From: Dictyostelium discoideum
Taxonomy: Eukaryota
DNA: 64,000 bases
Direction: 5' to 3'
Assembly (NCBI GenBank): GCA_000004695.1
Contig: CM000153.2
Location: forward strand, 416,001-480,000
The notes beneath the pieces are model-generated. The model was not told the origin of the DNA and did not search any database. It worked only from the letters and a program-made list of their open reading frames with translations. Below, piece by piece: positions 59,205 to 61,290 of this stretch (position 1 is the first letter of the stretch; each line of letters opens with the position of its first letter). The position numbers were made by a program, and so were the translations under genes.

Positions 59205-59660
59205 AAAGGGATTTTTTTTTTAACAGAATTCATAAAGTCCCTCAAATAAATTAATTTCTAAAATGTTATTCAGTATGTATTATTTAAATAAATAATAATA
59301 AATGAAATAAATAAAGAGAATTAAAAAAAAAATTTAAAAAAAAAAAAAAAAAAAATTATTTAGAATCATTAAAATCAATCAAGTATTAGCTCAGTCCAAA
59401 AGAATCAAATTTCTTCAATTTCAGTAGGAACCACCCAATATTTACAATAGAGATAGGAATTCAAGTTCCAAAATCAGTTGATGTGACTTATGGAATTCAA
59501 CCTGTAAAAAATATTGAATTGTCAGGTCTATAAATCTTCAAAAATTTATGATTTCACCAATAATTCATATTAATACTCAGGGAATATATACAAACATTTA
59601 ATATATATTAAATAAATATTTAATAAAATTCATTTTGAAATTTTAAAAAAATTAAATGTT
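59205..59660 (+). repeat. Copy A of a ~440-bp dispersed direct repeat; about 85-90% identical to copy B in its flanks, with a diverged, frame-disrupted central ORF
   Basis: The alignable blocks are aaaagggatttttttttt-acagaattca..aagt.cctcaa.taaattaa.ttctaaaatgttattcagtatgtat... / attatttagaatcatta.aatcaatc / agctcag.ccaaaagaatca.atttcttcaatttcagtaggaac / tcaaa.atttatgatttcac.aataattcat...ggaatatat...aatatatattaaataaatatttaat...attcattttgaa.ttttaaaaaaa. Confidence 0.6.
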
Positions 59661-60288
59661 ATTGATTGATTTGAAGTAACATGTCAATCATCATTTTCAA
59701 ATGAATTACCATATGAATTACCATATCGATCAAAAAATATAATTTAAATTCAAATGACATTGTTAGTTGTATTGGTGAGGGTTTTAGAAATAGTAATGAA
59801 ATAAGTATGATCATTTGAAATCAGTCAATAACATTTGGTGATGAAGTTAATATATAACCATTAGTTTTTAATAAACCACCTTTTAATTTTGGAATACTAT
59901 TTACACTTGATGGAATTGGTGGATATGTAATTTGAAAATTTATTTGACCAATAATCACAACAACCTATTTGAGCATTTAATTTTCATGAGAGTTGATCTG
60001 AATAATTTGAAAATCTACAGAAATAATATCATTTGGATCAATAAAATTATTATCAATTTTAACAGAAACAAAAATCGGTCACCATTCAAAATAAAAATAA
60101 TAAATTATGATTATAAAAAAAAATATATAGCAGATACAAAATTTTAATTTTTTTATTAATAATGACCTAGGGTTTCACCAAAGAACATCGACTTCTCTTA
60201 TCTCCATAATGGAAAAAAGTTTTATCAGATGATCGATATTCTTTGAATAAAAATAATTATTATAAAAGTAGTAATTATTTAAATAGTA

Positions 60289-60384
<96 letters not shown>

Positions 60385-60831
60385 TAATAATAAATAATTA
60401 TTTTAATAATGATAATAATATTTTAAACAATTGAAATATATGCATTACCTTTTTTTTTTTTAATTTTTTTGAAATTTCATAGGATTTTATTCAAATAAAA
60501 GTAAATAACAAAAACGAATAAAAAAAAAAAATTTAATTCAAAAATATTCAGGGGATAGAAAATAAATAAAAGTAAAAAAAAAAAGATTCGATAAACCCAC
60601 CATCGCCGCATAAAATTACTTTTCACCACCCTTAAAAAATATTGTGCAATTTTTTAAATACATAAATTACCCGTTCATTTTATTATATGAAAAAAAAGGG
60701 GTTTTATATATTTTTTATTTAAAAGATTTAAATATATGATATATACACAACCAACAATAAACAACCAACATACGGCCGATATTATTGTGCCATTTTAAAT
60801 TTTGTTTTTATTTTATTTTCATAATTAAATC

Positions 60832-60874
<43 letters not shown>

Positions 60875-60879
60875 ATATA

Positions 60880-61290
60880 AAAAGGATTTTTTTTTTTACA
60901 GAATTCAACAAGTTCCTCAATAAATTAAATTCTAAAATGTTATTCAGTATGTATTTTTAATTGAATAAATTAATAAAGAGAACTAACAATTTAAAAAAAA
61001 ATTATTTAGAATCATTACAATCAATCTCAAGGGTCAGCTCAGCCCAAAAGAATCAGATTTCTTCAATTTCAGTAGGAACTAATCAATCAAATAATAATGC
61101 AGCACTTGATGTTAATATTGGAATTCCAGGTTTATTAAATATTGAAATTTCAACCACTCAATAAATTTTCAAAGATTTATGATTTCACTAATAATTCATT
61201 AAAATCCTCATGGAATATATGAAAATTAAATATATATTAAATAAATATTTAATTATATTCATTTTGAATTTTAAAAAAAAAAATTAAAGG
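60880..61290 (+). repeat. Copy B of the same ~440-bp repeat; contains an intact small 2-exon ORF (60937..60946 + 61010..61164, 54 aa: MLF-K-SLQSISRVSSAQKNQISSISVGTNQSNNNAALDVNIGIPGLLNIEISTTQ)
   Basis: Direct-sequence comparison with copy A, which lies 1675 bp upstream. Candidate intron GTATGT...TTATTTAG (63 nt), phase 1. A protein-coding role is speculative. Confidence 0.55.

Follow-up and report, generated by a model that had tools for sequence, protein, structure and literature searches.

A Tandem Pair of a Tiny Two-Exon Gene in Dictyostelium discoideum: DDB_G0283295 and Its Probably Decayed Duplicate

Two Copies of One Transcription Unit

Toward the end of a 64-kb stretch of Dictyostelium discoideum chromosome 4 (contig CM000153.2, positions 416,001 to 480,000; 22.8% G+C), hereafter the window, a unit of about 440 bp occurs twice on the forward strand, as copy A (59198..59658) and copy B (60874..61287). 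We consider it likely that a tiny two-exon gene of the MLFKSLQSI family is present here as a tandem pair, with copy B the intact gene DDB_G0283295 and copy A a decayed duplicate. A blastn search of the window with copy A found copy B at E = 2.8e-91, with 75% identity over 480 columns including gaps, and besides it only poly-A/T low-complexity matches; MAFFT aligned the two copies end to end. These results bear out the homology that an earlier, sequence-only reading of this DNA had reported, and broadly the extents it gave, except that similarity begins some 10-15 nt further upstream, at a TATA-like box (59198 in copy A, 60874 in copy B). Beyond the unit limits the identity between A and B, obtained with the same aligner, drops abruptly on both sides to 0.37-0.55, which is the AT-rich baseline, and the spacer between the copies (59659..60873), which lies outside the repeat, does not resemble the sequence upstream of copy A.

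Both copies carry the same elements in the same order: a TATA-like box, GG(G) followed by 10-11 T, the motif CAGAATTC, a leader of ~35 nt ending in AAAATG, a 10-nt open reading frame (ORF; ATGTTATTCA), an intron running from GTATGT to TTATTTAG, a second exon, and a 3′ region with an AATAAA signal that ends in an A-run. The exon-intron structure is thus as the sequence-only reading had described it. In copy A, the putative core promoter and 5′ leader (59198..59262) contain the TATA-like ATAATAAAAA at 59198-59207, GGG+T10 at 59208-59221 and CAGAATTC at 59224-59231, a putative start region. The exon-1 ORF, which encodes MLF plus one nucleotide (59263..59272), is the same in copy B and in family genes of the related loci L001, L003 and L004 discussed below. 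It is followed by a 91-nt intron (59273..59363), whose splice sites are conserved with copy B and whose interior is AT-rich and carries indels, by a frame-disrupted exon-2 homolog (59364..59533), delimited by three-frame translation, codon listing and polarised substitutions, and by a homolog of the 3′ untranslated region (UTR; 59534..59658), with AATAAA at 59611-59616 and 59622-59627 and an A-run at 59645-59651. In copy B, the corresponding parts are the putative core promoter and leader (60874..60936, with TATATAAA at 60874-60881, GG+T11 at 60884-60897 and CAGAATTC at 60899-60906), the exon-1 ORF (60937..60946), a 63-nt intron (60947..61009), the exon-2 coding sequence (61010..61164, stop codon TAA at 61162-61164) and a 3′UTR region conserved with copy A (61165..61287, AATAAA at 61240-61245, terminal A11 at 61273-61283).

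TATA together with oligo-dT is the usual promoter arrangement in Dictyostelium, and on this general knowledge the TATA-like box and T-run of A and B would form their core promoters; the order TATA, T-run, CAGAATTC recurs upstream of the paralog DDB_G0283465 (locus L001). The conserved ends of the copies correspond to the putative core promoter with the 5′ leader and to the 3′UTR with its AATAAA signal; the repeat thus spans an entire transcription unit, beginning with the TATA box and T-run and reaching to the poly(A) signal.

Copy B Is DDB_G0283295, One of a Family of Small Dictyostelid Proteins

Splicing of copy B at its conserved sites yields an intact protein of 54 residues, MLFKSLQSISRVSSAQKNQISSISVGTNQSNNNAALDVNIGIPGLLNIEISTTQ, as had been predicted from the sequence, and reproduces exactly DDB_G0283295 of D. 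discoideum AX4 chromosome 4 (Q54RA1, XP_639146.2, EAL65788.2). Its N-terminal 36 residues include three basic and no acidic ones and many Ser, Gln and Asn, and its C-terminal 18 residues alternate between hydrophobic and polar around a Pro-Gly; the protein contains ...IGIPGLLNIEISTTQ, ends in ...LDVNIGIPGLLNIEISTTQ, and has three glycines and no cysteine. An AlphaFold2 model built with 15 family sequences has a mean predicted local distance difference test score (pLDDT) of 55.5 and a predicted template modelling score (pTM) of 0.17, with residues 2-12 as the sole helix; this model is unreliable, and no fold can be claimed from it. An old automatic MetaClust model of the locus, P0001 (94 aa), splices the start and C-terminus of copy A onto the leader and ORF of copy B, whereas the current RefSeq version contains copy B only. 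The unannotated decayed paralog 1.7 kb upstream of DDB_G0283295 thus once caused a fused gene model. The 90%-identity cluster of DDB_G0283295 also lists proteins of 368-448 aa; we rejected these as relatives, their sequences being unrelated, and take their listing to be an artefact of the cluster table.

Protein searches with the 54-aa peptide and profile searches recovered a family of small dictyostelid proteins. By phmmer, copy B matches DDB_G0283503, DDB_G0283465 and DDB_G0283517 at E values of 3e-9 to 1e-8, and six D. discoideum proteins of 57-59 aa, annotated as 'hypothetical proteins' and encoded on chromosomes 4 and 3, resemble it. An exhaustive HMMER profile search of 1.84e9 representatives returned only seven proteins, all small except for one weak match of 573 aa (E = 3.2e-4), and among them DDB_G0283509, DDB_G0281615, DDB_G0283493 and Acytostelium subglobosum GAM17745.1, a 65-aa protein that has the N-terminus and the IPGLL motif in common with the family; the 54-aa sequence within the fused P0001 scored E = 2e-22 against the family profile. 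A profile search of a 90%-clustered collection added two proteins of D. firmibasis, one of D. purpureum, a fused 107-aa model of 'D. cf. discoideum', and DDB_G0283395, whose UniProt name is 'Protein sigN176'. The family thus comprises proteins of 54-65 aa that start with MLFKSLQSI, found in D. discoideum, D. firmibasis, D. purpureum and A. subglobosum, and judged by these searches it is dictyostelid-specific. DDB_G0283295 can accordingly be assigned to an MLFKSLQSI/sigN176 small-protein family.

Family members share an N-terminal half that is rich in Ser, Gln and Asn, lacks acidic residues and ends in ...QSNNNAAL, and then a short C-terminal segment of hydrophobic or amphipathic character in which IPGLL is often present. 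The first nine residues are near-invariant from Acytostelium to D. discoideum, and the C-termini are clade-specific. Copy B retains the family-invariant QSNNNAAL and IPGLL as well as the invariant columns M1, L2, K4, S5, N32 and L36. That the family is conserved between Acytostelium and Dictyostelium speaks for a protein of some importance, and this reach suggests that these tiny proteins are old and probably real.

The gene structure is shared as well. Taking as criterion a 10-nt exon-1 ORF, an intron of 60-200 nt starting with GTA and the remainder of the frame in exon 2, we found the micro-exon ATGTTATT[C/T]A, directly followed by GTA and a short intron, in 12 genes of three species, namely copies A and B and 10 of 10 further family genes in L001, L003 and L004. 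The D. firmibasis locus (L003) holds a tandem array of four family genes and the D. purpureum locus (L004) one of three, spaced 0.7-1.3 kb, so that small tandem arrays of a two-exon gene are the norm in this family. The fourth gene of the D. firmibasis array (L003 11308-11642) encodes 62 aa; it retains the micro-ORF and MLFKSLQSI, but beyond them the product (…KGVQSNSKKDFISSNLITYQNDIDINYVSNVFNTYGWLDILAKSIRAKGKAHI) bears no relation to those of the adjacent genes. Here, too, a constant N-terminus is joined to a body that has been replaced. In Dictyostelium cf. discoideum (GCA_054859205.1; L002 10001-11272), the 107-aa product P0022 joins a pair of neighbouring family genes, whose exon-1 micro-ORFs lie at 10001 and 10967, a mis-annotation of the same kind as P0001.

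Of the interpretations offered from the sequence alone, the one that stands is a small family of genes that arose by local duplication, on the strength of the annotated gene, the homologs in four species, the tandem arrays and the shared micro-exon. The other two, a dispersed repeat or mobile element and a noncoding RNA or repeat whose conserved ends are its functional parts, fared badly. A compact unit ending in T-run or A-run low complexity would suit a short repeat, a non-autonomous element or the gene of a structured RNA. The window, however, holds two adjacent copies only, the 72 kb of related loci (L001-L004) hold none beyond bona fide family genes, copies A and B have no terminal inverted, long terminal or direct repeats beyond A/T runs, and within the unit lies a spliced ORF whose product is the same as an annotated protein that has homologs in four species; we therefore rejected a transposon, in agreement with the remark in the sequence-only reading that no known transposon was recognised. 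A structured RNA was rejected likewise: neither at gathering thresholds nor at E ≤ 1 did the window or the locus match an Rfam family, and folding of the conserved ends is no stronger than that of shuffled sequences (z = 0.04, -0.13, 0.5 and 1.0). We regard the chance that the unit is any of these as negligible.

Relation to Prestalk Small Proteins and to sigN/hssA

Several relatives of copy B belong to a published class of 'Small proteins (57-59 aa) (prestalk specific)', which includes G0283465, G0283503 and their neighbours on chromosome 4; these genes are highly expressed at 16 h and depend on Mef2A, with read counts that differ strongly between wild-type and mef2A- structures (PMC3640940). 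The same paper lists G0281189/91/95 under 'hssA-related genes' and terms G0283503 hssA-related in its section on quantitative PCR, and it finds no significant similarity of the 57-59-aa group to hssA (PMC3640940). The set comprises DDB_G0283465, G0283503, G0283509, G0283517, G0283493 and G0283395 (sigN176) on chromosome 4, and G0281189/91/95 and G0281615 on chromosome 3. Copy B has in common with it the pattern MLFKSLQSI..QKNQISS.S.G..QSNNNAAL and IPGLL (56-63% identity to the 57-aa proteins), the 10-nt exon-1 ORF with a short intron, the TATA, T-run and CAGAATTC arrangement, a related 3′UTR and the occurrence in tandem arrays. It differs in its length (54 aa versus 57-62), in a C-terminal segment that is polar and amphipathic (DVNIGIPGLLNIEISTTQ) where those of the 57-aa paralogs are hydrophobic and rich in Ala and Val, and in its position, apart from the main chromosome-4 cluster and beside a delta-1-pyrroline-5-carboxylate (P5C) dehydrogenase gene, with a frame-broken copy A upstream.

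The sigN/hssA family has at least 96 genes with a tiny first-exon ORF, an intron plus a further exon, and sigN proteins carry a 'Coiled' domain, Pfam PF05710 (PMC2257962); about 100 hssA/7E/2C genes have been counted (PMC6198379). Knock-outs of sigN/hssA genes had no phenotype, and the authors suggested that redundancy may be the reason (PMC2257962, PMC8554618); six further knock-outs were also without phenotype, and SRCP1 falls in this class (PMC8554618). The sigN/hssA/2C/7E proteins resemble the MLFKSLQSI family in being dictyostelid-specific and shorter than 120 aa, with a Ser-rich N-terminal half that lacks acidic residues, in their two exons with an exon-1 micro-ORF and in their tandem clusters. 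Expression in prestalk or cup cells would be a further likeness, for copy B by analogy with its paralogs. Sub-threshold N-terminal matches to PF05710 are present in 11 of 19 family members (E ≤ 1; best 3e-4). In contrast, the MLFKSLQSI proteins are shorter (54-65 versus 75-93 aa), and copy B has an exon-1 ORF of 10 nt and an exon-2 coding sequence of 155 nt where sigN/hssA genes have an exon-1 ORF of 13 nt and an exon 2 of ~200-256 nt (PMC2257962, PMC6198379). Nor does it show the Ser/Gly/Cys-rich composition with conserved cysteines of those proteins (PMC2257962); it lacks both the Gly/Cys-rich region and the C-terminal Cys pairs. On these sequence features we place the MLFKSLQSI family as a distant branch related to sigN/hssA and not as a certified member.

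By analogy with these relatives we infer that copy B is transcribed after aggregation in prestalk cells and gives a largely disordered 54-aa protein, whose role is probably covered by other family members as well. Comparison with sigN and SRCP1 would suggest, for example, a small membrane-associated or aggregation-prone prestalk protein. The ~100 sigN/hssA-like genes and the MLFKSLQSI branch are highly expressed in prestalk and cup cells, and their function is not known.

Copy A Carries Frame Disruptions in Its Second Exon

Spliced at the conserved sites, copy A reads MLFKSLKSIKY and stops after 11 codons, at an in-frame TAG (59388-59390) that follows a 2-nt deletion near 59381. The part resembling the N-terminal half of copy B continues in another frame as SSISSVQKNQISSISVGTTQYLQ*, with stops in the B-like frame at ~59451 and ~59457 (TAG/TAG), and a homolog of the C-terminus, VDVTYGIQPVKNIELSGL*, lies downstream in the first frame, where the stretch IEIGIQVPKSVDVTYGIQPVKNIELSGL terminates at TAA 59531-59533. 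The early stop and the related downstream C-terminus reported by the sequence-only reading are therefore both present, but the single indel that it named is not enough, since a B-like product would require two frame changes (N-part in frame 0, C-part in frame 2). Furthermore, the QSNNNAAL region is replaced by a longer stretch (net +18 nt) with stop codons, and copy A has CAA CCT GTA AAA where copy B and the outgroup carry CCA GGT TTA TTA, so that IPGLL is lost. Compared with the family, only the N-part of copy A is recognisable, in a shifted frame (tblastn E = 4e-6), and copy A lacks the intact ORF of ~54-65 codons that characterises family members and that copy B possesses. An internal duplication as the source of the 18-nt excess was considered and set aside: an 18-mer repeat at 59456/59492 matches at 14 of 18 positions with a 36-nt offset, a level that 19 of 500 shuffles attain, and a similar self-match occurs in copy B.

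With the 2-nt deletion, the net 18-nt replacement, the in-frame stops and the substitutions that destroy IPGLL, copy A cannot make a family-type protein, and it is most likely a pseudogene. It resembles unprocessed pseudogenes that arise by tandem duplication in keeping the promoter-proximal region, the intron and the UTRs while bearing frameshifts and premature stops; it differs from them in that its decay is not uniform, the C-terminal coding part being ~3x more diverged than the rest of the unit.

Divergence between the Copies Is Concentrated in the C-Terminal Coding Part

In anchored alignments, with identities counted over all columns, the 5′ leaders of A and B are 88% identical (for copy A, its last 58 nt), exon 1 is identical at 10 of 10 positions, and the introns are 64% identical (92% in ungapped columns; 91 versus 63 nt). 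Within exon 2, identity is 87% in the N-part, which contains the 2-nt deletion of copy A, 41% in the middle, where 47 versus 29 nt account for the 18-nt length difference, and 65% in the C-part; the 3′ flank is 81-83% identical for ~125 nt past the stop codon, and the local score of the copy A 3′ flank against copy B lies at z = 18 relative to AT-matched controls. Expressed as mismatch rates, the flanks differ by 11.9% (21/177), the exon-2 N-part by 8.7% and the C-part by 35% (21/60), a significant excess of the C-part over the flanks (Fisher p = 1.4e-4). The observation that the flanks are better kept than the body of the ORF, with an 18-nt indel, is thus correct for this pair. It does not extend to the family, as we had considered: close paralogs in D. 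firmibasis have C-terminal coding parts that are 94-99% identical while their leaders and 3′ flanks are 44-72% identical, near the baseline, and in D. purpureum paralogs the coding sequence is the best-conserved part. These other arrays show the opposite, so the pattern is peculiar to the A/B pair.

These features would be explained by a head-to-tail duplication of one complete small gene, from core promoter to poly(A) signal, at a fairly recent time (~9-12% divergence), after which copy B would have been held by purifying selection and copy A disabled, with extra local damage in its 3′ coding half (the 2-nt deletion, the net gain of 18 nt and clustered substitutions). On this account, the leader, the intron ends, the N-terminal coding part and the 3′UTR look conserved because the duplication is fairly recent, and the weak conservation of the body would stem from indels and additional substitutions in the region coding for the C-terminal half of copy A.

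An alternative is that both copies are functional, now or until recently, with the C-terminal ~20 residues under diversifying selection and the N-terminal ~35 forming a constant part that acts as leader or carrier; specificity would then reside in the C-terminal segment, and A and B would have been driven apart before, or without, inactivation of A. Consistent with it, the C-part has diverged ~3x faster than the flanks and N-part, 12 of the 13 differing C-part codons are nonsynonymous, the first nine residues are near-invariant in the family while C-termini differ by clade, the D. firmibasis gene at L003 11308 keeps MLFKSLQSI with an unrelated remainder, and the C-terminal frame of copy A preserves the hydrophobic/polar alternation of copy B (VDVTYGIQPVKNIELS versus LDVNIGIPGLLNIEIS). 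However, a 12:1 ratio of nonsynonymous to synonymous changes is, for so few codons, near the neutral expectation of ~3:1, most of the changes that can be polarised fall on the frame-broken copy A, the C-parts of the D. firmibasis paralogs are 0.94-0.99 identical with diverged flanks, which indicates purifying selection, and copy A has no intact ORF under canonical splicing. We hold this alternative to be unlikely. The phrase 'rapidly diversifying' in the sequence-only reading accordingly holds only in part: the fast change is confined mainly to the C-terminal half and to the copy A lineage, and close paralogs elsewhere behave in the opposite way.

The mosaic of two conserved blocks around a divergent block of ~100 nt might also reflect old duplicates whose 5′ part and 3′UTR were homogenised by gene conversion, the centre having diverged long ago, or a copy A whose centre was overwritten from a third paralog. 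Gene conversion is common in tandem families. This would require two tracts, or one interrupted exactly at the C-terminal coding part, and no annotated protein carries an A-like C-terminus except P0001 of the same locus, so that there is no known donor; in addition, intron and UTR similarity ends exactly at the boundaries of the transcription unit in A and B alike, as a duplication breakpoint would more readily explain. We consider such a history very improbable.

A third possibility is that copy A acts as an RNA or through alternative splicing, with the 5′ leader and 3′UTR as the parts under selection. Its leader and UTRs are as conserved as those of copy B despite the broken ORF, an acceptor at 59402 would yield a 46-aa ORF, and the 3′UTR of copy B resembles that of the distant paralog DDB_G0283465 (local z = 6.2, reached by 0 of 2000 AT-matched controls), with which it shares a block containing the AATAAA signal and ...TTATATTCATT. 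A precedent is available in the passage of PMC6198379 that cites Shimada et al., according to which a frame-shifted hssA still suppresses the defect of a STATa hypomorph, implying an active transcript. However, the N-terminal coding part of copy A is equally conserved (8.7% mismatches), so that the flanks are not specially protected, and a recent duplication predicts the same. Furthermore, the UTRs fold no better than shuffles (z = 0.04 and -0.13) and have no Rfam match, paralog UTRs are at baseline in the other arrays, so that there is no general constraint on UTR sequence within the family, and the 3′UTR of copy A itself is only weakly similar to that of DDB_G0283465 in L001 (z = 2.2, 48/2000). 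The acceptor at 59402 lies in sequence that is not AT-rich, downstream of the perfectly conserved canonical TTATTTAG. A functional RNA or alternatively spliced product of copy A thus appears to us quite doubtful.

We attach a similarly small likelihood to a broader proposal, in which the family consists of precursors with a constant leader and a variable C-terminal peptide (e.g., processed prestalk signalling or surface peptides), or of active transcripts that keep the frame-broken copy A functional as RNA. It draws on the near-invariant N-terminal nine residues, the ~3x divergence of the C-part against neutral-looking flanks and the conservation of the copy B 3′UTR; were the precursor version true, the A/B pair would record a phase of rapid diversification in the active C-terminal peptide.

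Returning to the tandem pair with a decayed copy A, several observations weigh against it. A neutral rate that is uniform along the unit does not alone account for the ~3x excess of the copy A C-part over its own N-part and UTRs, and an additional process is needed there, whether local rearrangement, earlier positive selection or conversion. Polarisation of the C-part with DDB_G0283465 as outgroup assigned 12 changes to A and 4 to B, leaving 5 ambiguous, and this 12:4 asymmetry is suggestive only (binomial p = 0.08, with a hand-anchored alignment and a single outgroup). Between the ATG and the final TAA of copy A, a single TAG interrupts the frame, and since the alternative 3′ splice site at 59402 would open the 46-aa ORF, a product from copy A by way of this acceptor is conceivable. 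On the side of copy B, residues 2-35 match PF05710 positions 3-36 at E = 0.0026 and 19.0 bits, below the gathering cutoff of 21.4, and no hssA/sigN protein was among the results of the HMMER profile search over 1.84e9 representatives. DDB_G0283295 is missing from the Mef2A table of PMC3640940, and our literature search found no mention of it.

The locally raised divergence of the C-part is a mildly interesting detail, and the pair itself is ordinary. As a recent duplicate pair with localised C-terminal divergence, it provides a small data point on the fastest-evolving part of these proteins.

Surroundings of the Pair

Directly upstream of copy A lies a multi-exon P5C (aldehyde) dehydrogenase gene on the + strand (57160-58925), with exon ORFs at 57160-57363, 57628-58440 and 58710-58925, a PF00171 domain and at most 72% identity to metagenomic P5C dehydrogenases. 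Its stop codon lies ~270 nt before the TATA-like box of copy A, which leaves copy A almost no upstream regulatory space of its own. A neighbouring single-exon 2OG-Fe(II) oxygenase gene (51526-52617, 363 aa) is matched by eight Logan contigs of ~1.2 kb, probably transcripts, from runs that contain D. discoideum sequence (SRR26869256-58, -66 and -67; SRR28564540, -41 and -43).

Within the spacer, the stretch 59660-60250 has a coding-like G+C content for this genome (0.24-0.26) and several broken ORFs in one minus-strand frame (...GQINFQITYPPIPSSVNSIPKLKGGLLKTNGYILTSSPNVID*...); this suggests a decayed gene fragment, although the broken ORFs have no Pfam match. Trinucleotide microsatellites are present in the spacer, as (AAT)n at ~60285-60400, and downstream of copy B, as (TAC)n at 61586-61625; the intron of the paralog in L001 (10011-10211) likewise consists mostly of (AAT)n.

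The spacer also contains a AAACCCACC box at ~60594-60603, 342 nt upstream of the copy B ATG, among the few G/C-rich words there, and an inverted form, GTGAGTGGGTTT, occurs 151 nt upstream of DDB_G0283465 (L001 ~9843-9853). The hypothesis of a GBF site was rejected, the heptamer (T/G)G(T/G)G(T/G)G(T/G) occurring once, at -342 of copy B, and not being enriched upstream of any of 10 family genes. Of the 10 family genes, 3 have AAACCCA upstream, a frequency without significance once multiple testing is allowed for.

The 3′UTR of DDB_G0283465 (L001 10376-10510) contains a near-perfect palindrome, AATTATGAATTG...ATAATTCATAAATT, and this 3′UTR folds more stably than its shuffled versions (z = -2.4, 4/200). 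In copies A and B just one half of the palindrome, ATGATTTCAC.AATAATTCAT, is retained, and such a fold signal is absent.

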